From an uncultured Gammaproteobacteria bacterium (lineage in GTDB: Bacteria > Patescibacteriota > Patescibacteriia > Magasanikbacterales > GWA2-37-8): a DNA stretch of 64,000 nucleotides. Shown here one piece after another: positions 1 through 42,159 of this stretch (its first letter is position 1; each line of letters opens with the position of its first letter). A program made the position numbers and the translations under genes. The notes beneath the pieces were generated by a model. That model made no database searches and was not told the DNA's origin. It saw nothing but the letters and a program-made list of their open reading frames with translations. The stretch spans positions 15,590 through 79,589 of the forward strand of contig CAZWKA010000002.1 of assembly GCA_964634875.1 (NCBI GenBank), read 5' to 3'.

Positions 1-1340
1 CGATCGAAAAACACACCAGCCGGGAACTGGGACAATACCAGGTTGCCGATGTGCCCATCTCGTTTACTGATGGCACCCTGCTCCAGGCAAATGGCAGTAA
101 CCAAACCTATGTCATTGAAAAAGGTAAAAAGCGCTTGATCGCCGATAACGATACGTTTATTGCTCTTGGCTATAAACGGGCCAATGTCGTCCCGGTTGAT
201 CTGGTTGCAACACTTAACATTCCGAATGGAGAGCCTTTATTCCTCAATACCGCGCTTCTTTCTTCTAAAAATAAATTTTTGGGCGATGCTGAAGCTGAAG
301 TGTTTGATCAGTACGGTTCAAAACTCCCGGCGTATCTTATTGCGGAGTACCCAAGCGGACGTATTATTAGCGGAAAAAATATTGACACTCAACATTCCAT
401 AGCTTCGCTTACTAAAGTAATAACTGCCTACGAAGCGCTTAACCAGAACTTTAAGCCAGAGGCAGCAACGAGTTATAGTGCTGAAAAGTATGCCATCGAG
501 ACTAATACGCTTAGCCTTAAAGAAGGTGAGAAAATAAAGAATAACGACCTTTTGAATACCCTGCTGGTTGGTTCTATAAACAATGTAGCCCGTATGGTGG
601 TGGCTGCAACAGGGTTAACTGAAGGAGAAATGCTGAGCAAGATTAATAACCGTCTCGCCAACTGGGGTGCAGATAGCACGACAGTCACCGATGTTACCGG
701 TCTTGACGAAGGAAATAAATCCACCGCCCGAGATCTTTTAAAGATCTTTGCCAAAGCGCTCGAAAATCCAGACCTTAAAAAAATCATGGCTAAAGATGGC
801 TTTACCTTTACCAGCACACTTGGCAAGAAGAACGTCGTACACGGCGTAAAGAACACTAATCAACTCTTTTTTTCAGCTAAGAAAAATTACACCATCCTTG
901 ACAGCAAAACGGGCTATACTGATGAAGCGGGAGGTGTTATGATGATGCTAGTACAAGTCGGCGGCACCAAACAGGCAGGAGCTACGCTGAAAACAACGCT
1001 TAAACAAGGTTCTTCGGGAAGTGAAGTTACCTTGCTACAACAGTTACTCCAAAAAAATGGTTACCTGGCAACTTCAGTGAAGCCTAATGGTAATTTTGGA
1101 CCCAGCACGCTCGCGGCGGTCAAAAAATTTCAGCAGGCCAAAAAGTTAACCGCCGAAGGCTTGGTTGGTCCTGCCACGCGGGCAGCCCTTAACGCCACAA
1201 TTACGTCTGGCACCACTGGCGGAAAACAATATGTTATTGTGACGCTTGGCAATAACGACTACGCCCGACGTTTTGACGAACCTCATGCCATGGCTGAATG
1301 GTTAGCTAAAGGCAATTTCACTGTCGCCAGTAAGAAATAA
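1..1340 (+). CDS. D-alanyl-D-alanine carboxypeptidase (serine-type, S11/PBP5-like) with C-terminal peptidoglycan-binding domain; 5'-partial. The reading frame is open to the window edge and the first in-frame start inside the window is GTG at 51.
   Basis: SxxK active-site motif 'SIASLTKV'. The C-terminus has a PG_binding_1-like repeat ('LLQQLLQKNGYLATSVKPNGNFGPSTLAAVKKFQ...'). There is no stop codon upstream in frame and no signal peptide at the 51 start, so the N-terminus probably lies outside the window. Confidence 0.6.
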   Translation, partial: IEKHTSRELGQYQVADVPISFTDGTLLQANGSNQTYVIEKGKKRLIADNDTFIALGYKRANVVPVDLVATLNIPNGEPLFLNTALLSSKNKFLGDAEAEVFDQYGSKLPAYLIAEYPSGRIISGKNIDTQHSIASLTKVITAYEALNQNFKPEAATSYSAEKYAIETNTLSLKEGEKIKNNDLLNTLLVGSINNVARMVVAATGLTEGEMLSKINNRLANWGADSTTVTDVTGLDEGNKSTARDLLKIFAKALENPDLKKIMAKDGFTFTSTLGKKNVVHGVKNTNQLFFSAKKNYTILDSKTGYTDEAGGVMMMLVQVGGTKQAGATLKTTLKQGSSGSEVTLLQQLLQKNGYLATSVKPNGNFGPSTLAAVKKFQQAKKLTAEGLVGPATRAALNATITSGTTGGKQYVIVTLGNNDYARRFDEPHAMAEWLAKGNFTVASKK

Positions 1341-7807: not shown

Positions 7808-9304
7808 TTAACGAGGTTGATACACCTCTACATTTTCCAGCTTTTTAATCAGGACAAAATTTTTAAGGAGCTCGTCAACACGTTCTGGAAAATTCTGTCC
7901 ACCGTAACGGTTGATTATAAGACGATTAGTACTGGCCCCCCTGGCTTCGTCTTCAGTTTCGGTGCGGCGCATTTGGGTACTGAACCCCGACCAATCGTTG
8001 GGGTTGTAGACTGGCCAATCAATGTTGTAGAGCACGACAGCTTGCTCGCCAAAGTAGTATTTGGCTACCAAGTAGTCAAAGGAATTGAGGACGTATAAAG
8101 ATTGGCTGTGGTCAACAATCTTTTCTTTAAGAAGCAGGTTATACCCTTCTGAATACGGTGGAATTCTTATAAGCAGGATAAAGCTCAAATAAAGGGCGAA
8201 GAAAATAATGGCATACCTTTGACGCATGTCCGCAAGCCATAATCCCAACAACACATATACAAAGAAAGCAGCGGGAATGAGATAGCGGGCAACAAAAAAA
8301 TCTTTTCCAATAAGAGAAAGATGGGCGACGAGCGCAAGGAAGCCTGCTGACCAAAGCACGAGTATTTGAACATCTCTTTTCCTGGCGCGTGCTAGTCGGA
8401 AACTGGCAACCAGCAATATAACGATACTTGCGGTGATGCCGACAACAGGAGTAAGAAGCAGGTTAGGGTTGGGATCAAGCATCCCCTGTTGCCCAAGTGG
8501 GTGCCCTACGAAGAAGATGTACAGCGTTCCAAAAAAATCTGACCAGGTAACAGGAGCTATCCAGCTAATCCGGTCGCTGACCGCGGTAAATTGACGGATA
8601 AAGCTGGGAAGCCACGGTAAAAATACCACTAAGCCCACAACATAACCCAACCAAACTTTTGGAGAAAAAATGATTTTTAGGCCATTCTTTAATCCTCCTC
8701 GATTTTCTTGAGACCATTGCCAGATACAAAAAGCTACTAAAAAAAGAGCAGAAAAAACGATTGTTAAGGTGTGAGTCAGCCACGAGAGGCCCATACAAAG
8801 CCCCCAGAGCACGAATTGCCCCCTATTACCGGTTTTGACCGCTCGAACGAAGAAATAGGCCGCCAGAAGGCACAGAAAAGCGACCATGGCATACATACGA
8901 GCTTCCTGAGAGTATTGCACCGCGAATGGTGCTATCGCTGCTAAAAGCGCACCCCACAGCCCTGCCCGAACAGAGGCAAGTTCTTTAGCGATCCGATAGG
9001 TCAGGTACACACTGCCAATCCCCCACATTACTGAAAACAGGCGTAAAACCACAACAGATGTGCTACCAAGGAGGGTGGCAAAAAGTTTAAGTCCTAAAAA
9101 ATAGAGTGGCGGATGAGTGTCACCTGCAACTGCTTGAAGCAGTTCCGCCCAGTTATATCGGACAATAACGCCGACAAAGGCTTCATCATACCAGAAGTCA
9201 CGCTTTCCCAAGTGCCAAACCCTGAGGACAAAAGCTAGAAGTATAATGAGATATACTGCATACTGGTTAAAAAAATTTTGCTTTTTAGCGAGAAAATCGG
9301 GCAT
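7808..9304 (-). CDS. GT39/GT83-family membrane glycosyltransferase (PMT/ArnT-like dolichyl/undecaprenyl-phosphate-sugar-dependent transferase)
   Basis: 'DEAFVGVIVRYNWAEL' is a PMT_2-like DE motif in the first loop. The protein is ~500 aa with multiple TM helices. The ORF track extends it to a TTG at 9391; the ATG at 9304 is preferred. Confidence 0.6.
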   Translation of the reverse strand: MPDFLAKKQNFFNQYAVYLIILLAFVLRVWHLGKRDFWYDEAFVGVIVRYNWAELLQAVAGDTHPPLYFLGLKLFATLLGSTSVVVLRLFSVMWGIGSVYLTYRIAKELASVRAGLWGALLAAIAPFAVQYSQEARMYAMVAFLCLLAAYFFVRAVKTGNRGQFVLWGLCMGLSWLTHTLTIVFSALFLVAFCIWQWSQENRGGLKNGLKIIFSPKVWLGYVVGLVVFLPWLPSFIRQFTAVSDRISWIAPVTWSDFFGTLYIFFVGHPLGQQGMLDPNPNLLLTPVVGITASIVILLVASFRLARARKRDVQILVLWSAGFLALVAHLSLIGKDFFVARYLIPAAFFVYVLLGLWLADMRQRYAIIFFALYLSFILLIRIPPYSEGYNLLLKEKIVDHSQSLYVLNSFDYLVAKYYFGEQAVVLYNIDWPVYNPNDWSGFSTQMRRTETEDEARGASTNRLIINRYGGQNFPERVDELLKNFVLIKKLENVEVYQPR

Positions 9305-31227: not shown

Positions 31228-31276
31228 AAAACATGGTATCCTTTAGTCATTATAAAAACTTCTAAATCTCGTTTGT

Positions 31277-31390
31277 ATGAACAGTGCCCTTAAGGCTCGC
31301 ATGAACCAAGCTAAAAAGAATACCAAAATCGGCAAAAAACTGAAGAAGAAAACCAAACACATTGTTAAGAAAAAAATCATCAAGACCTAA
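31277..31390 (+). CDS. Possible very small Lys-rich protein (37 aa): MNSALKARMNQAKKNTKIGKKLKKKTKHIVKKKIIKT
   Basis: An ATG-initiated ORF in a 150-nt gap, followed by a hairpin and T9 run at ~31400-31442. No clear Shine-Dalgarno. Composition resembles a ribosomal or nucleic-acid-binding peptide. Confidence 0.25.
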   Translation: MNSALKARMNQAKKNTKIGKKLKKKTKHIVKKKIIKT

Positions 31391-31554: not shown

Positions 31555-32223
31555 ATGAGCAAGCGCGCATTCAAAGCTTGTCAATTACTGGTGCTGACCC
31601 TTGTAGGGCTCAGCGCTTACACCGCGATTAACTTTTCCAGCCCATCCCCAAAGAACGTGGATTACGACGAAAAGTACCTGGAAGCCTGGAACAGGTACAG
31701 AACAGCGTGTGAAAAGAACGAACCTCGACTCTACCCAATCCCCTTCGAAACCCTTGTTGAGGACAGGATCGCCCAAGAACCCGTCAGAGCCAAAAAAATC
31801 AAGCTTCTGAAAAAAACTGAAGCCAGTCCCACATCCTCTGGCTTGTCCAACCACGGAACCCTATCCTGTTACAACAAAAACTACTCTGAGCTAAACAGGG
31901 AATGCCGAGAAGTTCCTTCTTCAGCCCTTCCGCGCATGAATTTTTGTCCCTATTACTGGTTTCGACCCGTTCTTCAAACCAGAAACAGGGCGGTGGTTAA
32001 GGCTAGGACGGTAAGACAGAACTCCGAAAGAGTTAACTTGCCGGAAAACATTCGTTGGACCGCAAGCTTTGCCTATAGCTATACAGGCGCATGCCAAGCT
32101 CAGCACATGAACTGGGCAGTGCAGCTGCTAAAGCAAGGGCACCGTCCTGCTGATCTCGACCAGAGATTTGACACCCCCTCCTACTGCTGCACGGTTCCAC
32201 AGACCGTATCTAGAACCCGCTGA
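31555..32223 (+). CDS. Secreted Cys-rich hypothetical protein (222 aa), high-GC cassette 4
   Basis: N-terminal signal peptide 'KACQLLVLTLVGLSAYTA'. About 12 Cys residues. No known domain. A terminator hairpin follows at ~32260-32300. Confidence 0.5.
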   Translation: MSKRAFKACQLLVLTLVGLSAYTAINFSSPSPKNVDYDEKYLEAWNRYRTACEKNEPRLYPIPFETLVEDRIAQEPVRAKKIKLLKKTEASPTSSGLSNHGTLSCYNKNYSELNRECREVPSSALPRMNFCPYYWFRPVLQTRNRAVVKARTVRQNSERVNLPENIRWTASFAYSYTGACQAQHMNWAVQLLKQGHRPADLDQRFDTPSYCCTVPQTVSRTR

Positions 32224-32300
32224 TCGATCGGCCACGTCGATCGACCAGCACCCTAACGAACAGCTTTTTAGTTAAAAGGCTGTTCTTTTTTGTTTTACCA

Positions 32301-32329
32301 TTGACAACTGCGTTAAAAAATGGTAGTTG
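32301..32329 (+). promoter_or_regulatory. Sigma70-type promoter (TTGACA-17-TAGTTG) for the lipoprotein gene at 32351. Its sequence is similar to the promoter at 31465.
   Basis: 'aTTGACAactgcgttaaaaaatggTAGTTG' shares a 'TTGACAA..gcg..taaaaaatg.tag' pattern with the upstream promoter. An AAGGAGG Shine-Dalgarno sits 8 nt before the ATG. Confidence 0.5.
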
Positions 32330-32350
32330 TCCGGTAAAGGAGGGGTCCTG

Positions 32351-33016
32351 ATGAAAAATCTGCTCACAAACAGTGCCCTGCGAGCCGTCGGCTTGCTCGT
32401 CTTGGCTACCACCTGTCTTGGAGGCACGGGCTGCACCGATTTCATATCCAGGCTTGCAGGCGGCTCAAAGGTGGTGGACAAGGGCGAAGGCGTTGAACGA
32501 CCACATGTTGGCTGGTTAGGAGCGCGCGGAGTGACCTCGGCAGACAACGTGAGCGAAGAGGCGCACGAGGCTCTGGTTGTCGCCTTAAAGAAGCTCTGTG
32601 ATGAGGCAGGAAACCAAGAGGCCTGCCGGCAGCACCTGCGCTGCAAATTCGCAAACGACTGTGCAACCGGAAATGAGCCGGTCCTCATCCTGAGCGATTT
32701 GTCTGGTGAGGGTGGTGAGGGCCAACCCCCGATGGGAGTTGGGCAACCAACCTACTGCGATCCGGAGCATGCCCACTATTTTGCGCTACTCATCAAGCCT
32801 GAATCAGAAGCGCCAAACTCATCGGGCTTCTGGCATATTCGCGGCTACCTCCGGTGCATCATCTGTGGACATGAGATCAAACTCGGACGCTACCAGCTCA
32901 ATGATGCGCTGAGTGCGGACGAGGCCCGCTCCCAAGCCGCCTCGCGAATCAGTGACATCATCGAGTGGTTCAAGCGAGAAAGCTTGAGCTGGCCACGAAA
33001 CCCGACGATCAACTGA
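32351..33016 (+). CDS. Putative lipoprotein, Cys-rich hypothetical (221 aa), high-GC cassette 5
   Basis: Signal peptide with a lipobox-like 'LGGTGC'. Many Cys pairs ('EACRQHLRCKFANDC', 'RCIICGHE'). GC-rich codons. Confidence 0.5.
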   Translation: MKNLLTNSALRAVGLLVLATTCLGGTGCTDFISRLAGGSKVVDKGEGVERPHVGWLGARGVTSADNVSEEAHEALVVALKKLCDEAGNQEACRQHLRCKFANDCATGNEPVLILSDLSGEGGEGQPPMGVGQPTYCDPEHAHYFALLIKPESEAPNSSGFWHIRGYLRCIICGHEIKLGRYQLNDALSADEARSQAASRISDIIEWFKRESLSWPRNPTIN

Positions 33017-35246: not shown

Positions 35247-36281
35247 TTAGATGCGTTTATTTATCCCAGACCTATTTTGTGCCACCACCTCATCAACCCA
35301 ACCTCCTTTTACCAAGGCTTTTAATGAATTTTCCATAGAAATCATATTGTCTTTACTACCGGTTTGAATCACGGATTTAAGCTGGGCAATATTGTTCTCG
35401 CGAACCAAGTTTGCAACCGCTGGCGTATTAACCAAAATTTCTCGAGCAGGGACACGGCCACCATCTTTGGATGGAACGAGTTGCTGCGCGACTACCATGC
35501 GTAGTACGGCCGAAAGCTGGATGAGCACTTGTTTTTGCCGGGTTCCTTCAAACACATCCACAATACGCTCAATTGCTTCGGCTGCGCTCGAGGTATGCAA
35601 GGTAGAAAAGACAAGGTGCCCTGTTTCAGCAGCCGTCAGTACAGTAGAGATTGTTTCTGGGTCACGCATTTCCCCAACCACAATAATATTTGGGTCTTGA
35701 CGGAGGACATACTTGAGCGCCGCAGCAAAAGATTCCGTATCGGTACCCACTTCACGCTGCTCAATAAGGCTTTCTTTATTTTCAAAAACAAACTCAATAG
35801 GATCCTCGATAGTAATAATATGCGCTTTGCGGGTTTTATTGATCTCCTCGACCAACGAAGCAATGGTGGTCGATTTTCCAGAACCTGTTGGACCAGTTAC
35901 CAAAACTAAACCGTCAAGCATGGTCGGGACTTCTTTAAGGGCTTGTTCAAAATTAAGATCTTCGGTTGTGGGAATAGAAGCGGGTATGAGACGGGCAGCC
36001 AAGCCAATTTTTTCTTCTTGACTGTGTAAGTTGATACGGAAGCGAGTACCGTCAATTTCGTACCCAAAATCAAGTTCCTTGTGTGCCAGATACTTATCTT
36101 TTTGTTCTTTCGTGAGTAAACCAAAAATAGCAGTTTCAAGCTCTTTTACAGGAAGTGGCTCCCCTTCAATTTCACGCAATTCACCCTCTACCCTGACCAT
36201 TGGTTTTTCACTGGCAACCAGGTGCAGGTCTGAAGCATCTTGCTTGATGGCCTCCTTGAAGAAGTTTTTAATAGCCAACAT
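35247..36281 (-). CDS. pilT: Type IV pilus retraction ATPase PilT
   Basis: Walker A 'VTGPTGSGKSTT', Asp box, and a His box 'TLHTSSAAE'. N-terminus 'ASDLHLVASEKPMVRVEG'. 344 aa. Confidence 0.88.
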   Translation of the reverse strand: MLAIKNFFKEAIKQDASDLHLVASEKPMVRVEGELREIEGEPLPVKELETAIFGLLTKEQKDKYLAHKELDFGYEIDGTRFRINLHSQEEKIGLAARLIPASIPTTEDLNFEQALKEVPTMLDGLVLVTGPTGSGKSTTIASLVEEINKTRKAHIITIEDPIEFVFENKESLIEQREVGTDTESFAAALKYVLRQDPNIIVVGEMRDPETISTVLTAAETGHLVFSTLHTSSAAEAIERIVDVFEGTRQKQVLIQLSAVLRMVVAQQLVPSKDGGRVPAREILVNTPAVANLVRENNIAQLKSVIQTGSKDNMISMENSLKALVKGGWVDEVVAQNRSGINKRI

Positions 36282-36444
36282 AGGGCAAAAATAAAGAATA
36301 TGCCTTTAGTTTAACATGCTTTTTTGCTCTTGAAAAGGAGGATTTGCTATGTTAGACTGGACTCACAAATAGGTGGGCAATATAGTACGCATACCCCCAA
36401 TGCTCAGTACTAAAGAAAAGCCTTTCTTTATTGTCTCGCTAATT

Positions 36445-36468
36445 CGGGCTATACATCCGTAGAGCCCG
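36445..36468 (+). repeat. tRNA acceptor-stem-like mini-hairpin duplicating the 5' end of the tRNA-Pro (cgggctatac..gtagagcccg)
   Basis: 9-10 nt identity to tRNA-Pro positions 1-10 ('cgggctata'), forming a 10-bp hairpin 50 nt upstream of the tRNA. Confidence 0.4.
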
Positions 36469-36517
36469 TTCTCGCTCGGAAAAATCGAGATTGCGATTTC
36501 GCTTTTCTTCACTCAAA

Positions 36518-36590
36518 CGGGCTATAGCGCAGTTGGTAGCGCGCATGCATGGGGTGCATGAGGCCGTGGGTTCAAGTCCCACTAGCCCGA
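36518..36590 (+). tRNA. tRNA-Pro (anticodon GGG)
   Basis: A manual fold gives a 7-bp acceptor stem (CGGGCTA/TAGCCCG), a GCGC D-stem, and a CATGC/GCATG anticodon stem. The loop is A-T-GGG-G-T with G37. The T-arm is GTGGG-TTCAAGT-CCCAC and the discriminator is A. CCA is not encoded. Confidence 0.8.
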
Positions 36591-36627
36591 CACATTTACG
36601 GAAAATTACTCCTCAATTATTGAGCTG

Positions 36628-36656
36628 AAAACACCGCATCGTTGTGGTGTTTTTTA
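36628..36656 (+). terminator. Intrinsic terminator after tRNA-Pro (acaccgcatcgttgtggtgttttt)
   Basis: An 8-bp stem (one G-U pair) with a 4-nt loop and a T5 run. Confidence 0.6.
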
Positions 36657-36684
36657 GTCCTTCCTTTCTTCGATCTCAAAAACC

Positions 36685-36788
36685 GGTTCGAGAGCGTTTA
36701 CCGAGCTGATCCGTTTTGATTTATTTTGCGTAGAGTTAGCTCCAATTTTTGGTTCGAGTCTGACCAGCATACCATATAGGACTCGAAC
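36685..36788. repeat. tRNA T-arm-like fragments (three copies of 'ggttcgag', including an inverted pair 'ggttcgagtc...gactcgaacc')
   Basis: 'tggttcgagtctgaccagc' resembles the tRNA-Pro 3' part 'gggttcaagtcccactagc' (about 14 of 19 identical). An inverted partner lies at 36779-36788. Confidence 0.4.
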
Positions 36789-36820
36789 CTATCAGTTCTG
36801 GGGAAAATATGATACCTTAA

Positions 36821-37324
36821 GTGAATATTATGAAACACGACTTGTTAATAACTCGTAGAGGCCAGGTGTTGGAACAATTCATCGCCGTCGAACACCTGAT
36901 CGCAGGGCTAATCTCCTTTCATTATCTGGGGAGGTTTGACCCATCTTTTACCCTCAATTTTTTAGGCGATCCTTCAATAGGCTTTGCTTTCAAGAAAAAT
37001 ACTGTCTTGCTTATATTTAATGATGAAATCAAACCATTTATTAACGATTTAGATAAGGTTAACAGCATAAGAAACAAGTTTGCCCACCAGCCACTAATGC
37101 GCCTGGATCAGACTTCAGATGATTACTATTTCAGAGACCCTGGTGACAGCCAGCCTGTAAATATTAAGAAGGACCCGGCCGTCCTCTATGATGAGTTTGA
37201 AAAAACACTCCCTAATGTGCTTTCGGCCCTACGAGCCATCGCTGATAAAAGGAAATGGTCCATGATACCAGATAAGAATATTTTTCCTATTAGCGGCTCA
37301 GTTTATCTACCCCCAACAACATGA
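36821..37324 (+). CDS. HEPN-domain protein, Abi-like (Rx4H motif); putative abortive-infection/RNase effector. An ATG at 36830 is an alternative start.
   Basis: 'VNSIRNKFAHQP' contains R-N-x-x-x-H, the HEPN/Abi_2-type signature. The gene is AT-rich, in an island next to a tRNA, and has an ATGA overlap with a small downstream ORF. Confidence 0.45.
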   Translation: MNIMKHDLLITRRGQVLEQFIAVEHLIAGLISFHYLGRFDPSFTLNFLGDPSIGFAFKKNTVLLIFNDEIKPFINDLDKVNSIRNKFAHQPLMRLDQTSDDYYFRDPGDSQPVNIKKDPAVLYDEFEKTLPNVLSALRAIADKRKWSMIPDKNIFPISGSVYLPPTT

Positions 37325-37503
37325 TTAAAAAGACAAATCAGCCTCTTAGCGAGGAGGCGATAAAAAACTGGCATAATCTTTTTGGTGCCACTAAGACAAT
37401 CTTAAAAAGGCTTCTCGAGGAAGGCTATACCCTCAATGATGGGATTCTTCTTCCGCCCTGTCCAGGCACTTCATCAGAACAGTCTGACTTAAAGAAACCT
37501 TGA
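37321..37503 (+). CDS. Small protein (60 aa) translationally coupled to the HEPN/Abi-like gene
   Basis: The ATG overlaps the upstream stop (ATGA). A perfect-palindrome terminator follows at 37554-37578. Confidence 0.35.
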   Translation: MIKKTNQPLSEEAIKNWHNLFGATKTILKRLLEEGYTLNDGILLPPCPGTSSEQSDLKKP

Positions 37504-37553
37504 AATGAGACTCTCTAGTTCGGAAAATACGTAATCTGGTCGACACATATATA

Positions 37554-37578
37554 AACAACGGAATTCCGTTGTTTTTTG
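37554..37578 (+). terminator. Intrinsic terminator (aacaacggaattccgttgtt followed by a T6 run)
   Basis: A perfect 8-bp stem around an EcoRI-like loop, then 'ttttttg'. Confidence 0.7.
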
Positions 37579-37613
37579 TTTTTAAACCGTCTTATTTAGC
37601 TAATTATTTCTAT

Positions 37614-37642
37614 TGACAAAATTACTGTATGGTGGTATAAGT
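37614..37642 (+). promoter_or_regulatory. Sigma70-type promoter (TTGACA-17-TATAAG) upstream of cassette 6
   Basis: 'TTGACAaaattactgtatggtggTATAAG'. It implies a ~140-nt leader before the ATG at 37790. Confidence 0.45.
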
Positions 37643-37789
37643 ATTTGTTCTTTGTAAGAAGATTTCCAGCTTTAATTTCAGTATATTTAGCAAAATAGAT
37701 TGAGTTGAAGGCTGAAAATTCAGCACTTCCTCTTTGCCGGGGTGGCAAGGAGCGAGCCCTTTACCAAAAGGGCAGAAAATAGGACAGCA

Positions 37790-38251
37790 ATGAGTACTCT
37801 GCGCGCACTAGCGCACCTCGAAGAGCAACTTGGTCCAGCTCGGTGGCACGAACTGATCGACTCGGCGAACACTGGAAAGGTCAAGGCGCTCTGCGACGAA
37901 TTGCTTATCCCGACAACCATGGTGGTCGGGGGTCGCACCTACGACATCCTCAGCGTTGAAGGCAATATCGGTAGCGGACACGAGCTGGTCTGCCTAGCGC
38001 AGGAGTTGGATGCCCACTTGGGACGCGAGGAGCGCATGCACCTGCTCGATCACCAACAAGAAATCCCGAGTCTCCTTGGAAAAATCAAAATCATTTTCAC
38101 GGATGACACGAGTGCGGATGATGCCCACGGCAGCATCACTTCGATCGAGTGGGATAAAGGGTGTAGGCAGTGGACGTGCTTTTGGTGCAGGCTTGACAGC
38201 ACCATCATCTACCGGGGACGCAACATACGCGTACTGCGCCGTCGCTCGTAA
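37790..38251 (+). CDS. Hypothetical protein (153 aa), high-GC orphan cassette 6. A GTG at 37742 is an alternative start.
   Basis: GC-rich codon usage. A terminator follows at 38324-38370. No domain recognised. Confidence 0.4.
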   Translation: MSTLRALAHLEEQLGPARWHELIDSANTGKVKALCDELLIPTTMVVGGRTYDILSVEGNIGSGHELVCLAQELDAHLGREERMHLLDHQQEIPSLLGKIKIIFTDDTSADDAHGSITSIEWDKGCRQWTCFWCRLDSTIIYRGRNIRVLRRRS

Positions 38252-38323
38252 AAAGCCTTGAACTGAGACCTAAAACTTCTCCACCGACCAGGGCGCGCAG
38301 AACATTTCGCGCCGCTGGTCACT

Positions 38324-38370
38324 AAAAACAACAGTCTTAAACTTAAAACTGTTGTTTTAATTTTTTTTAA
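38324..38370 (+). terminator. Intrinsic terminator (aaaaacaacagt...actgttgtttt followed by T8)
   Basis: An 11-bp stem with a 12-nt loop, then a long T-run. Confidence 0.6.
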
Positions 38371-38550
38371 AAAAAAGGCTCTAACATAGTCCACCCAAGC
38401 CGACGGAAATATAAAACAGCATAATCTGCTGTTTTATATATTTTTTACTAAAACCTTGCAATTTTATTAGGTATAGGAGTAGGGTACAAGAAAGCTAGGT
38501 ACCCCATTCAGCTCAAGCTGAAGATGAGCTTTCAACCCAAGGAGGTCGTG

Positions 38551-39240
38551 ATGCGTGACGAAGGTGAACGAATTGGTCAAATCTCTGAGTGGCGCAATGG
38601 AAACGGTTCAGAAAGACAAGAGCCAATCTGCATGCTCGATCTGGCTTTTATCCTACGCCAACTGTCTGCCGCTTCGGGGGTGAGTACGACATATAGGCTG
38701 GCAACGGAAGGGATGCTGCTTGGTTTACAGGAGATGTCTGAACAACACCCTGTCAGCTGCACGTTCCTCGCCGCGCTCTACCGTAACTTGTATGAGGGCG
38801 GCCAAGAAGAGCGCGGTTTTGAAGCTGAACTGCGGGATTACTCTCTCGTCGCCGCGAAAGTTCTGGAACAGCTTTCCAAGAACCTTACCATCACCCCGCC
38901 CAACTCTGAAAATATCGAACACTCAGTGGTAAAGCAGAACATCTTAAGACAGCTTGTCGGGATCAAGCTGATGACCGCTCAACACTTGGAAGTCCTGCTT
39001 CATGACCTGTCCGAGATGAGACCCGAGATCACTGCCCTTCTGCCAAAGAGGGTGGGAAGAAGTGTGTGGGGAAGTGACTGGCAGGAAGGGAAACACCTTA
39101 TTATCCCTGGAGAAGGTGTAGGAGAAGAGGATACCGAAATACTTCCGAGTAGCGCCCTGAGCTTGCTGGTGCGTCTCAGCCTAGGATTGGTTCTTGCAGA
39201 CAAGCTCCAGAAGGCGCTGCAACCGACCCTCACCCACTAG
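38551..39240 (+). CDS. Hypothetical protein (229 aa), high-GC orphan cassette 7
   Basis: An AAGGAGG Shine-Dalgarno sits 5 nt before the ATG. GC-rich. A perfect-hairpin terminator follows at 39272-39305. Confidence 0.45.
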   Translation: MRDEGERIGQISEWRNGNGSERQEPICMLDLAFILRQLSAASGVSTTYRLATEGMLLGLQEMSEQHPVSCTFLAALYRNLYEGGQEERGFEAELRDYSLVAAKVLEQLSKNLTITPPNSENIEHSVVKQNILRQLVGIKLMTAQHLEVLLHDLSEMRPEITALLPKRVGRSVWGSDWQEGKHLIIPGEGVGEEDTEILPSSALSLLVRLSLGLVLADKLQKALQPTLTH

Positions 39241-39271
39241 ACAATATCCTGCTTTCACCTAAACCCAGTAA

Positions 39272-39305
39272 CCCGGCGCTAACTAGCGCCGGGAATTTCA
39301 TTTTT
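39272..39305 (+). terminator. Intrinsic terminator (cccggcgctaactagcgccggg followed by a T-run)
   Basis: A perfect 9-bp GC stem, then 'aatttcattttt'. Confidence 0.7.
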
Positions 39306-39498
39306 ACACTTGACTTTACTCTTCTTCAGTCATAGTATCCCTAGCAACCGAGACTTGCCCCAACAAAATTGCTATCTTACGACTGAATGAATCGTGGCAT
39401 AAAAACCAACCAGACCCGCTGTTTGATTAAGACCGGGATACTACCCGAACTATCAACCCCCGAATCTGGGCCAACTAGCACACCACGCGGAGGTCAGC

Positions 39499-39861
39499 AT
39501 GCTAGACCACAAAGATACCCGGTTCACTTTCAGCCTCCAAAACCGAATCTACGAAGCAGTGGGCTTTCTTAATCCAGGAGAAGCTAATTGTCTTGGAACC
39601 GAGATGCTGCAACGCACTGCCGGCGAAAACGGCGGGGCGATTGGGAAAGAAGACGAGGAGTTCATTATACACTGGATTAACGAGCTACCTGTCGAACTCC
39701 AGCCTTATTGGCTCGTGACCCAACGCCTATACGAAGGCAATATGCAGCGAAATGTTTCTTGTCTTGCGTGGTGCACAGAGACGGGTCGGTGGTACCGCTT
39801 TTGGGACTGGCTTGGATATAGCTGGTTTCCCAGGTGTCTTGTACTCCGACGCATCACCTGA
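39499..39861 (+). CDS. Hypothetical Trp-rich protein (120 aa), high-GC orphan cassette 8
   Basis: A GGAGG Shine-Dalgarno before the ATG. The C-terminus is 'RWYRFWDWLGYSWFPRC'. A bidirectional terminator hairpin follows at 39923-39948. Confidence 0.4.
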   Translation: MLDHKDTRFTFSLQNRIYEAVGFLNPGEANCLGTEMLQRTAGENGGAIGKEDEEFIIHWINELPVELQPYWLVTQRLYEGNMQRNVSCLAWCTETGRWYRFWDWLGYSWFPRCLVLRRIT

Positions 39862-39922
39862 AATCATACCGAACTAAGCTGTAGACTTTTCAAAAAGGAA
39901 AACAGCTTGGTTCACAAAATAA

Positions 39923-39950
39923 AACACTCTCGATTTTATCGAGGGTGTTT
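39923..39950. terminator. Bidirectional terminator hairpin (acactctcgattttatcgagggtgt)
   Basis: An 11-bp stem with one G-U pair. A T-run follows on the minus-strand reading, so it fits as the terminator of the nucleotidyltransferase gene. Confidence 0.5.
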
Positions 39951-39979
39951 TACATAGATAGAACCGACCACAACACAAA

Positions 39980-41065
39980 CTAAAGCTCAACCAAGGTCTG
40001 ATCACCAATAATCAGTCGATGCGGGCCTTTTTCGGATCTTGGCAGAACCACAGCATCCTTACCAATAATGCTTTCAGTAATCGCCTCGGTTGTTTCGAGC
40101 CGACAATTATTAAATACAATTGAGTTATCAATAGCCGTGTTCTTAACGGTGGTATTGGACCCAATAGTAGTGTACGGACCAATACTACAATTTTCCAAAT
40201 AACAACCTTCACCGATAATCAATGGACCGCGCAAGGAAACATTCTTACCCATGACGGTATTTTTACCAACAGCAACTTTTCCTTCCTGGCGCGTGTCGGC
40301 CAGACACGAACCTTCCAGACGGAAAACGCTGGCAGGAAGCTCGCCAAACAAAAGTTGATTAGCTGCAATAAGGTCGTTGGGCTTGCCGGTATCTTTCCAC
40401 CAGCCGGTAATTTCTCGATAGCCGACTTTATAACCATTCTTTAAAAAATACGAATGAATACTCGAAATCTCATACTCTCCACGAGGCGATTTTTCAATAT
40501 GATCAAAAGCCTTAAAAAAATTACTGGCATACAAATAAATACCCGTCACAGCAAAATCACTTGGAGGGTTTTTTGGTTTTTCAATGATATCAATCAGCTT
40601 ACCACTAGCATCAAACTCGGGCACGCCAAAACGTTCTGGATCGGGGACTTTAGAAAGAGCCAACATGCAGTCCAAACTTTCCCGTTCGAACACCTCAAAC
40701 AACGGCACGAGACTTCCAAGCACAATATTGTCTGACAAGTAGAACATGAAGGGGTCGTTCCCGATAAATTTCTCCGCACATTTCACAACGTGAGCAATAC
40801 CCTGTGGGCCGCCTTCCTGCTCAAAACAGACCACCTTAATCCCCCACCGGCTGCCATCACCGACAGCATCAGGAATTTGGGTTTCACCGGGGTTGGTATT
40901 GATATAAATCTCTTCAATTCCAGCTTCAACTGCTTTTTCAATAGCATGAAAAATCATTGGCTTATTAGCCAGTGGGATAAGGTGCTTATTGATAGTGGTC
41001 GTAATCGGTCTAAGACGCGTTGCTCGTCCCCCACCGGTTAAAATTGCTTTTTTAATTTTAGACAT
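39980..41065 (-). CDS. Sugar-1-phosphate nucleotidyltransferase (RmlA/GlmU-like N-terminal domain + C-terminal left-handed beta-helix hexapeptide repeats)
   Basis: 'KAILTGGGRATRLRPITTTINKHLIPLANKPMI' is the G-x-G-T-R-L motif. The C-terminus has hexapeptide repeats ('IGPYTTIGSNTTVKNTAIDNSIV'). An ATG at 41065 directly abuts the upstream gene's stop; the ORF track extends to 41101. Confidence 0.75.
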   Translation of the reverse strand: MSKIKKAILTGGGRATRLRPITTTINKHLIPLANKPMIFHAIEKAVEAGIEEIYINTNPGETQIPDAVGDGSRWGIKVVCFEQEGGPQGIAHVVKCAEKFIGNDPFMFYLSDNIVLGSLVPLFEVFERESLDCMLALSKVPDPERFGVPEFDASGKLIDIIEKPKNPPSDFAVTGIYLYASNFFKAFDHIEKSPRGEYEISSIHSYFLKNGYKVGYREITGWWKDTGKPNDLIAANQLLFGELPASVFRLEGSCLADTRQEGKVAVGKNTVMGKNVSLRGPLIIGEGCYLENCSIGPYTTIGSNTTVKNTAIDNSIVFNNCRLETTEAITESIIGKDAVVLPRSEKGPHRLIIGDQTLVEL

Positions 41066-41067
41066 AA

Positions 41068-42159
41068 TTACCAAACTAAAATCTTTTTTACTATTTTCCA
41101 ATAAGCAGCCAAGATTGGATTTCCAATCCGCTGCACCAAAATACTCTGGACGGCAGGATCATCAAAAACTACTACTCCAACGGCTCGATCAAGCAACTGA
41201 CGGTCACTCACCTTGCGGACGCGCTGAACGACTTGGCGCTTACCAAACCACAGCTTCCACGAAGTTGGCTTTAACCAATACCAGTATACCCGTAATTTTT
41301 CCTTTAGCCAACCCTTTTTTGCTGCAAAAACCAAGAGCCCTAATTCGAGGATGAACGCAATTGGAAAGAGTAAAAAAAGCGTCGGTAAGCGATAATACAT
41401 CAACAACACCGCCAGACGGTTTCGTTCCATGAGGTACATTTTTTGAAGGTTACGCTCAAAGGAGTACTCATGATAAAAAATAGCATTAGCAATGAGGGCA
41501 ACTTTATAACCGACCGATTTAAGGCGAAGAGAATATTCAAGATCCTCGTGATATAAATACAAATCCTCATCAAGGCCTCCATACGTTTTAATAAGATCGG
41601 AGCGCAGAAGTAGTGCTGCACCACTCGCATAACCAATCTCCTCAGTTTTTTGGGCTTCGGCGACGGGCTTACGGAATTTGTTACAATAACCAAAACCCAA
41701 GAAATGATATTGGTTACCAGCGCTATTTATCAAATGAGTTTCGGGGTACAGCGTGACTAAGGCTTGGGCCGCGCCAACCCGCTCGTCGGCTTCGAGTGCT
41801 GCTACCATTTTTTCCAACATGGTTTCTGCACCAAAGCCATCTTGGTTGTGTAAAAAAATATACGCACAATCAGCTTCAATGGCACGCTCCATACCAATAT
41901 TATTGCCTCTGGCAAAACCCATATTTTTTACCTGAGCCATAATTTCTACGGTCGGAAAATTTTTTCCTGACAAGGGTAGGAGATTTTCTTCGAGGAACTG
42001 CTTGCTGGAACCGAAATCAGGATGGGGGTTATCAACGACGATCAAAAAGAGCTTATCTTTGGGATATGTTGTTATGCGCAACGCCTCAATAACCCGAGCC
42101 AAGTAAGGTTCAGAATGGTACGACAAGTAGACGATGCCGACTTTAGGAAACCGGTCCAT
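41068..42159 (-). CDS. Glycosyltransferase family 2 with C-terminal TM segment
   Basis: 'VGIVYLSYHSEPYLARVIEAL...LIVVDNPHPD'. A GTG at 42177 is an alternative start. Confidence 0.7.
   Translation of the reverse strand: MDRFPKVGIVYLSYHSEPYLARVIEALRITTYPKDKLFLIVVDNPHPDFGSSKQFLEENLLPLSGKNFPTVEIMAQVKNMGFARGNNIGMERAIEADCAYIFLHNQDGFGAETMLEKMVAALEADERVGAAQALVTLYPETHLINSAGNQYHFLGFGYCNKFRKPVAEAQKTEEIGYASGAALLLRSDLIKTYGGLDEDLYLYHEDLEYSLRLKSVGYKVALIANAIFYHEYSFERNLQKMYLMERNRLAVLLMYYRLPTLFLLFPIAFILELGLLVFAAKKGWLKEKLRVYWYWLKPTSWKLWFGKRQVVQRVRKVSDRQLLDRAVGVVVFDDPAVQSILVQRIGNPILAAYWKIVKKILVW

Follow-up and report, generated by a model that had tools for sequence, protein, structure and literature searches.

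A variable intergenic slot beside tRNA-Pro(GGG) in a Patescibacteria genome, with a probable HEPN insertion and GC-rich genes of a DGR variable-protein family

The described systems that come closest to the genes treated here are the minimal HEPN nucleases (the families HEPN_Cthe2314, RiboL-PSP-HEPN, HEPN_Apea and pEK499_p136, and the HEPN domains of Csm6 and HepS), the diversity-generating retroelements (DGRs) of the Candidate Phyla Radiation (CPR) as well as the islands that are found inserted at tRNA genes. The genes in question are five plus-strand open reading frames (ORFs), which encode a HEPN-like protein, its small neighbor ORF-B and the products of ORF3, ORF4 and ORF5. They lie in a 64-kb window (the whole stretch of DNA that was analyzed) of a 182,704-bp source contig, and all window-wide absences given below are limited to those 64 kb. 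The host is a CPR/Patescibacteria genome related to Magasanikiibacteriota, the nearest PilT relatives being metagenome-assembled genomes of that group. To our knowledge, few defense or toxin systems have been recognized in CPR bacteria. With respect to the DGRs, a cellular clade has been described that is restricted to Patescibacteria, a C-type lectin fold has been reported for the variable regions, and remote targets are known, which are missed by contig-limited surveys (PMC8144416).

We found that the region 36592-39979, between tRNA-Pro(GGG) and a convergent operon of a nucleoside triphosphate (NTP)-transferase and glycosyltransferases, constitutes a variable intergenic slot. It is fairly probable that this slot holds two unrelated modules that were acquired separately, namely a HEPN insertion at the tRNA and a group of GC-rich genes of a DGR family further downstream. 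An earlier note on this DNA had located the stretch directly downstream of pilT and tRNA-Pro(GGG), which is correct, and had taken it for a single island. The elements that delimit the slot are the following.

35247-36281, minus strand: pilT (T2SSE, E=9e-46), adjoining tRNA-Pro(GGG)
36518-36591, plus strand: intact tRNA-Pro(GGG), the left anchor of the slot (ARAGORN; Rfam RF00005, 67.7 bits)
39920-39952: palindromic bidirectional terminator between ORF5 and the NTP-transferase gene, the right edge of the slot
39980-41101, minus strand: NTP-transferase gene, convergent to ORF5

The local gene order runs from transketolase via two GC-rich ORFs, a 182-aa protein, the CCA-adding enzyme and pilT (minus) to tRNA-Pro(GGG) (plus), the five plus-strand ORFs and the convergent NTP-transferase/glycosyltransferase operon. 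Among the relatives, PilT identity is 87% for L002, 73% for L003 and 67% for both L004 and L005. L002, the closest relative found, carries the CCA-enzyme, pilT, tRNA-Pro, the NTP-transferase and two glycosyltransferases in the same order as the window, and the encoded proteins are clearly similar (Y33143 75%, CCA enzyme 84-91%, PilT 87%, NTP-transferase 78%, glycosyltransferases 61% and 89%, transketolase 83-86% identity). Considering that L002 keeps these flanks but encodes none of the five slot proteins at the syntenic locus, and that the sequence straight after the tRNA of L003 is likewise unlike the window, the slot is variable. The accessory character that had been proposed is thereby confirmed, and the same genes in the same order, an arrangement that the earlier note held to speak against an island, are not seen in L002. 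From tRNA-Pro(GGG) to the NTP-transferase gene L002 contains ~5.1 kb of other content, with ORFs of 59-70% GC, a second tRNA-Pro(CGG) and a 429-aa ORF.

Within this counterpart slot (L002 5694-9898), the GC-rich ORFs that accompany the second tRNA-Pro(CGG) include two paralogous lipoprotein-like ORFs of 62-70% GC, each followed by a common 58-nt palindromic element, and a GC-rich ORF for a small zinc-ribbon-like protein sits between pilT and the tRNA of L002. An integrase, transposase or reverse transcriptase was found neither in the slot ORFs and their neighbors nor in the 20 other window ORFs, which are housekeeping genes; an integrase, for which the earlier note had advised a search, is missing from this set. 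An integron-like cassette array was considered as well and rejected, as an all-against-all comparison of the spacers in the window gave no common attC-like motif and no integrase was found.

The sequence that follows the tRNA in L002 defines the borders of the first module. In this relative the 3' end of the tRNA runs straight into a terminator and a TTGACA promoter, a segment of ~100 nt that is homologous to window positions 37541-37645. In the window the homology with L002 resumes only after ORF-B, at the right copy of a short direct repeat.

36588-36598, plus strand: left copy of the 11-nt direct repeat, CGACACATTTA, overlapping the last bases of the tRNA
36599-37540, plus strand: insertion body relative to L002, with a terminator-like hairpin, the GGTTCGAG sites, the HEPN gene and ORF-B
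37541-37551, plus strand: right copy of the 11-nt direct repeat, CGACACATATA

The two copies are identical at 10 of 11 positions. For the motif CGACACATWTA 0.04 occurrences would be expected by chance, and the 64 kb contain just these two. Since 37541-37645 corresponds to the post-tRNA sequence of L002, and given the 11-nt repeat, a unit of 953 bp appears to have been placed exactly at the 3' end of the tRNA, between the two repeat copies. Judged from the sequence, it is this repeat that forms the integration-type signature of the locus, and it bounds the HEPN unit alone and not the whole slot. The arrangement resembles that of tRNA-gene islands in the insertion at a tRNA 3' end, in a direct repeat that takes in the final bases of the tRNA and in the varying content; it differs from them in the length of the repeat (11 nt), the size of the unit (953 bp) and the fact that neither the unit nor the window genes that were screened include an integrase or excisionase. 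The break points of a Logan contig were tried as evidence for an empty-site polymorphism and discarded, as this contig crosses the left junction and is hence uninformative.

The earlier note had attributed the region to a single tRNA-integrated defense island, formed by repeated site-specific integration and excision, with decayed tRNA fragments as scars, a HEPN/Abi_2 effector with a partner, and three unrelated orphan cassettes. This explanation would account for the variability of the slot and its position next to a tRNA, as well as for the clustering of the short GGTTCGAG element. The fragments that it relied on are listed here.

36445-36468, plus strand: mini-hairpin in the 5' leader of the tRNA, whose 5' arm equals the first 9 nt of the tRNA (fold against shuffles, z=-3.45)
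36685-36692, 36751-36758 and 36782-36789 (inverted): the three GGTTCGAG sites, just upstream of the HEPN gene

The hairpin itself stands, and so does the clustering: all three copies of GGTTCGAG in the 64 kb fall within 105 nt, which is non-random, and the inverted pair folds into a stem of 11 bp (36751-36789, z=-4.33), 41 nt ahead of the start codon of the HEPN gene. It is the derivation from a tRNA that fails. The T-arm of tRNA-Pro(GGG) reads GGTTCAAG and is unlike GGTTCGAG, the Rfam tRNA model gave no partial match at E<=10 over 36400-36830 besides tRNA-Pro itself, and the window contains the tRNA 3' half only once; we therefore rejected GGTTCGAG as a decayed tRNA scar. The 9-nt tRNA 5' end, CGGGCTATA, occurs three times in the window (once at position 910) and its match is one of about 17 chance 9-mer recurrences of this tRNA within 64 kb, which makes the significance of the copy in the hairpin marginal. 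Taken together with the missing integrase and the finding that the HEPN unit forms an insertion of its own, 953 bp in size, within an older frame that is common to L002, this renders the single-island explanation unlikely. The fragments are not demonstrably derived from a tRNA, the 11-nt direct repeat being the actual integration signature. The inverted GGTTCGAG repeat and its additional half-site probably form an operator of the HEPN unit, to go by their position and symmetry.

A copy of the tRNA-Pro 5' end upstream of the tRNA is seen in two of three relatives, i.e. the window (9 of 9 nt, in the hairpin) and L003 (13 of 14 nt at ~211-235, minus strand), and is lacking in L002. The copy may be less a scar than a characteristic of the tRNA leader.

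The insertion encodes two proteins.

36830-37324 (alternative start 36821), plus strand: HEPN-like protein of 164 aa with SIRNKFAH; IRNKFAH (Rx4H) at residues 80-86
37321-37503, plus strand: ORF-B, 60 aa, overlapping the HEPN stop codon by ATGA; candidate partner/antitoxin

A word-indexed search of 5.8e9 proteins with the HEPN-like protein recovered only the protein itself. In an exhaustive HMMER search of 1.84e9 representatives 69 proteins of ~150 aa were obtained at E<1e-3, which constitute a rare and previously unannotated family. Within an alignment of 62 members R10, F40, R81 and N82 are invariant, and E21, I28, Y32, L45, I80, F84, H86 and F123 are conserved in at least 90%. The family consensus, IRNxFAH, is a typical R-N-x-x-x-H HEPN motif and conforms to Rx4-6H, although one member (P0002) has lost the motif histidine. 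Comparison of the 62 members with Pfam yielded 25 sub-threshold matches to five HEPN-clan families (pEK499_p136 7, Cthe2314 6, RiboL-PSP 5, Apea 5 and Csm6_HEPN 2; best E=5.6e-4), and other clans do not recur. The family profile also weakly touches HepS and Csm6 at the motif (E=0.2-1.3). The AlphaFold model of the protein is confident (predicted local distance difference test, pLDDT, 89.6) and all-alpha, with a beta-hairpin insert after the motif helix.

The protein thus resembles the minimal HEPN nucleases in its small size, its modeled all-alpha fold, its Rx4H of the R-N-x-x-x-H type, the weak profile similarity at that motif and the accessory/defense neighborhoods of the family. It is unlike the curated HEPN families in that its similarity stays below threshold, in the modeled beta-hairpin insert and in the lack of a fused sensor domain. 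On the basis of its sequence and that of its relatives, the SIRNKFAH protein very probably belongs to the HEPN superfamily, and by analogy it is most likely a metal-independent RNase; that it would act as a toxin or abortive-infection effector, again as other HEPN proteins do, is an evenly balanced proposition. The HEPN half of the earlier HEPN/Abi_2 assignment is therefore upheld. The Abi_2 half is not, as neither the window protein nor any of the 62 relatives matches Abi_2, similarity to Abi_2/AbiD-type proteins is absent and PADLOC recognized 0 families. Searches of phage and plasmid collections with tblastn gave no match to the HEPN protein either.

Two observations on the HEPN family are in line with the defense role that the earlier note had in mind and speak for the single-island explanation: the motif is real, and the gene for P0014 of a member of the Patescibacteria lies two genes ahead of that for a Type IIG restriction-modification enzyme (PADLOC E=0). 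At the window locus itself a PADLOC match is lacking. Another member, P0004, is preceded by a LexA-like peptidase and a DinB polymerase. In a Patescibacteria locus (L050, 5301-11244) a family member is clustered with a protein that has an HD domain and is weakly similar to Cas3-HD, a protein of 449 aa, a Type IIG restriction-modification enzyme and a DUF2726 protein, which looks like a candidate defense island.

The ATGA overlap between the HEPN gene and ORF-B, on which a translationally coupled partner had been postulated, is present. An independent Logan contig likewise yielded a gene call for ORF-B, and the frame of ORF-B fits the codon usage of the host. In HEPN-MNT toxin-antitoxin systems the adjacent partner is a minimal nucleotidyltransferase (MNT), which is not found here, the neighbor being the 60-aa ORF-B. 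A relation between ORF-B and the 449-aa neighbor of P0014 was considered and dismissed, since the comparison gave none. In the mechanism that we propose, the HEPN protein would be a minimal RNxFAH RNase, ORF-B may be its antidote and the GGTTCGAG half-sites and inverted repeat upstream would probably serve as operator.

The second module consists of GC-rich genes.

37790-38251, plus strand: ORF3, 153 aa, GC 0.565; its C-terminal ~40 residues (~38130-38248) keep W..RW..W..L....RVLRR
38551-39240, plus strand: ORF4, 229 aa from an ATG with AAGGAGG Shine-Dalgarno (238 aa from 38524); the Logan gene call starts at 38551
39499-39861, plus strand: ORF5, 120 aa, GC 0.512; a divergent ORF3 paralogue with the same C-terminal scaffold

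The GC content of ORF3, ORF4 and ORF5 (0.565, 0.527 and 0.512) is well above that of the window (mean ~0.44, precisely 0.444), and the same holds for GC3 (0.55-0.68 against ~0.41 in core genes). Their codon-usage log-odds are low (0.06-0.13 against 0.24-0.36 in core genes), although the annotated frame is the best of six in each case. Such atypical composition could in principle reflect an assembly chimera or contamination from a higher-GC organism. This is hardly credible, considering that the GC-rich ORFs lie within AT-rich spacers with L002-like promoters and terminators, that an independent Logan contig covers ORF4, ORF5, the NTP-transferase and the glycosyltransferases at 100% identity, and that the ORF3 family is equally GC-excessive in a number of further CPR contigs. 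None of the five slot proteins gave anything above threshold with Pfam, PADLOC, NCBIfam or PHROGs, and with Rfam only the tRNA was matched, so the GC-rich segments do not represent any known large noncoding RNA.

The earlier note had described the GC-rich genes as three orphans, each with its own control signals. The enrichment in GC, a terminator after each of them and promoter-like hexamers ahead of ORF3 and ORF5 are indeed found. The orphan status applies to ORF4 alone, which retrieved only itself from 5.8e9 proteins and had no Pfam, PADLOC, NCBIfam, PHROG or PDB match; from its sequence ORF4 is classed as a true orphan that is unrelated to ORF3 and ORF5.

For ORF3 eight homologues were identified (P0072-P0079) that are 40-52% identical, the values for P0075 (L042) and P0072 (L043) being 47-51%. 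When ORF5 is left out of the hidden Markov model (HMM) that describes the ORF3 family, the model still recovers it at E=8e-13, and therefore ORF3 and ORF5 are paralogues with a common scaffold; with tblastn, ORF5 matches homologues in L042, L046 and L043. It follows that two of the presumed orphans are paralogues from a DGR-target family and have no relation to the HEPN insertion, which is at odds with a single island: the slot is variable as had been supposed, and its content falls into two unrelated modules. A 176-aa ORF of L002 was examined as a further ORF3 homologue and rejected, as BLASTP and the HMM gave no match. Searches directed at viruses were negative for ORF3 (tblastn against phages) and for both its family and its leader (scans of viral contigs).

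The link with DGRs comes from the relatives. On the Magasanikbacteria contig L042 (113,677 bp) the ORF3 homologue is located at 8001-8471 and its 3' end is directly repeated downstream (122 nt, 8337-8458 versus 8839-8960, 83% identical). Of the 21 mismatches between this variable region (VR) and template repeat (TR), 20 are at adenines of the downstream copy, which codes for an Asn-rich peptide, YWNDDRWVTNWNWLDNDFNGNYRVLRR. Downstream of the template repeat follow bAvd and then an RVT_1 reverse transcriptase. From its sequence organization the L042 locus is a textbook DGR. The same VR/TR pair is present in L043, L054 and L055, with 19 of 22 mismatches at TR adenines in L043, and the variable alignment columns of the family coincide with the TR codons that contain an A. 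DGR activity in these relatives is thus evident, and in Magasanikbacteria the C-terminal ~120 nt of the gene are rewritten from the downstream template by the Avd/reverse transcriptase pair through adenine-specific mutagenesis. The ORF3/ORF5 family accordingly has in common with the CPR DGRs described before (PMC8144416) the C-terminal VR, TR, bAvd and RVT_1 found in L042, the conserved scaffold being W..RW..W.L..RVLRR. The family is distinguished from known DGR variable proteins by the absence of a Pfam domain, a C-type lectin fold that is only weakly suggested and a conserved, structured 5' leader.

Decay of the element was observed in several relatives. In L043 (2818-4353), L054 and L055 Avd is truncated beside an HTH_38/rve transposase, and L049 keeps a 33-aa remnant of the reverse transcriptase C-terminus after the target gene (8080-8178).

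The window differs from a complete DGR in that reverse transcriptase, Avd and TR are all absent, and in a VR with indels and non-adenine changes. The L042 reverse transcriptase and Avd gave no tblastn match in the 64 kb, and a second copy of the variable region of ORF3 or ORF5 does not occur in the window. ORF3 and ORF5 as each other's TR and VR were ruled out, as they agree at only about half of their bases and the differences show no bias toward adenine. Given these absences, ORF3 and ORF5 are either orphan targets or targets that are served remotely: they would be fossils that lost their DGR and now drift toward the host GC, or remote targets for a DGR that is encoded at another site of the same genome.

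The latter alternative, according to which both genes are active and have their C-termini diversified in trans by a DGR outside the window, is rather unlikely in our estimation, even though several observations are compatible with it. Remote targets of the kind missed by contig-limited surveys are known (PMC8144416), both ORFs are intact with their scaffold kept and a promoter and terminator of their own, and a GC-rich hairpin lies 34 nt past the ORF3 stop. In addition, the 64 kb examined leave ~119 kb of the contig beyond the window. Besides the absence of TR, reverse transcriptase and Avd from the 64 kb, it has against it the VR 3' ends of ORF3 and ORF5, which differ from each other and from the VR/TR 3' end of the relatives, CCGGGTTCTCCGCCGC, so that one TR could not serve both. 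Composition speaks against it as well. The DGR-linked members have 66.7-67.5% GC with 16% A, whereas ORF3 and ORF5 have 56.5% and 51.2%, which is what one expects for copies that are no longer refreshed from a template and is compatible with a drift toward host composition after template loss. Fossil rather than remote status would be the better description of both genes.

The reading of the slot as two separately acquired modules, and of ORF3 and ORF5 as orphan or remotely served DGR targets, has to be balanced against a number of observations that weigh against it, the extent of the contig beyond the window being one. L002 is the sole relative that spans the entire slot, and a deletion in the L002 lineage instead of an insertion in that of the window may explain the difference; the repeat is merely 11 nt long, and an integrase or other mobilizing gene was not found. 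For the HEPN protein all HEPN Pfams remained below the gathering score, the best being HEPN_Cthe2314 (E=0.11, 12.9 bits versus a cut-off of 27.1), and a Foldseek comparison of the model with the PDB gave no significant match. The libraries that were searched contain no homologue of ORF-B, which matches neither a nucleotidyltransferase nor another family and does not have a counterpart beside the HEPN-family relatives examined, and the toxin-antitoxin pairing is hence speculative; the partner proposed earlier thus is not conserved next to homologues of the effector. Between the ORF3 variable region and the template repeats of its relatives there are many non-adenine differences and indels, and past diversification in this lineage is for that reason not demonstrated. 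Finally, the ORF3 model (pLDDT 82) had no significant Foldseek neighbor and suggests a C-type lectin fold weakly, the best template modeling (TM) scores being for CD302 (TMq 0.34) and a ranid herpesvirus C-type lectin (TMq 0.42).

The non-coding sequence around the GC-rich genes contains the following elements.

37553-37641, plus strand: terminator (37553-37574 with T-run) and sigma-70-like promoter (TTGACA 37613-37618, 17 nt, TATAAG 37636-37641), read from the sequence
37707-37789, plus strand: 5' leader of the ORF3 family, with three hairpins, the middle one of which sequesters AAGGAG
38286-38439, plus strand: post-ORF3 spacer with a GC hairpin (38286-38320), a terminator (38325-38358), a 31-nt motif (38374-38404) and a second terminator (38409-38439)
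39272-39338, plus strand: terminator (39272-39293) and promoter-like site (39310-39338) ahead of ORF5

Terminator-like hairpins thus follow each unit (37553-37574, 38409-38439, 39272-39293 and 39920-39952), and the segment 37553-37641 is homologous to the sequence directly after tRNA-Pro in L002. The window has a single copy of the 31-nt motif, AAAGGYTCTAACRTAGTCMACCCAAGCCGAC, which shares 28 of 31 positions with L002 8654-8684, with unrelated genes upstream. Its location downstream of unrelated genes suggests that coding sequences were swapped within a conserved promoter/terminator frame.

The leader of ORF3 is 86% identical to that of L042 (7921-7991) over 72 nt and 74% to those of L043/L044 over 133 nt, and is better conserved than the protein (86% versus ~50% identity with L042). 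According to the alignment and its consensus fold the three hairpins have variable loops and one compensatory pair. In a pattern scan of metagenomes three more copies were recovered, each upstream of a family member, and the loci with a leader now comprise the window, L042, L043, L044, L046, L047, L049 and L053-L055. As it has no Rfam match, the leader could be a new cis-regulatory RNA.

Elsewhere in the window a second GC-rich stretch (31555-33016, GC 0.50-0.58) is found that is not linked to a tRNA. It holds two orphan ORFs, one of 222 aa with a hydrophobic N-terminus and one of 229 aa that is lipoprotein-like, and amounts to an insertion of ~1.6 kb when compared with L002, in which ~330 nt separate transketolase from the Y33143 homologue. 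Just after transketolase, a segment of 136 nt (31248-31383) is 91% identical to L002 13491-13626 and apparently codes for a small lysine-rich peptide, which is absent from the ORF list at the thresholds used.

A more far-reaching explanation would be that ORF3 and ORF5 are domesticated DGR proteins that persisted and duplicated after loss of the retroelement, with translation controlled by the leader, and that together with ORF4, the 31555-33016 ORFs and the slot genes of L002 they mark a CPR-specific, integrase-free swapping of small foreign genes into promoter/terminator frames. We consider this decidedly unlikely.

HEPN toxins, CPR DGRs and variable tRNA-adjacent slots are all established concepts, and the present findings do not overturn the current understanding of them. 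What they provide is a testable annotation for a rare, hitherto unannotated family of ~150-aa HEPN proteins found in CPR bacteria, and a previously unnamed family of DGR variable proteins in Magasanikbacteria. As this latter family spans members that are linked to a DGR, members in which the element is decayed or disrupted by insertion sequences and members without any retroelement, it could show what becomes of hypervariable proteins after their retroelement has been lost.

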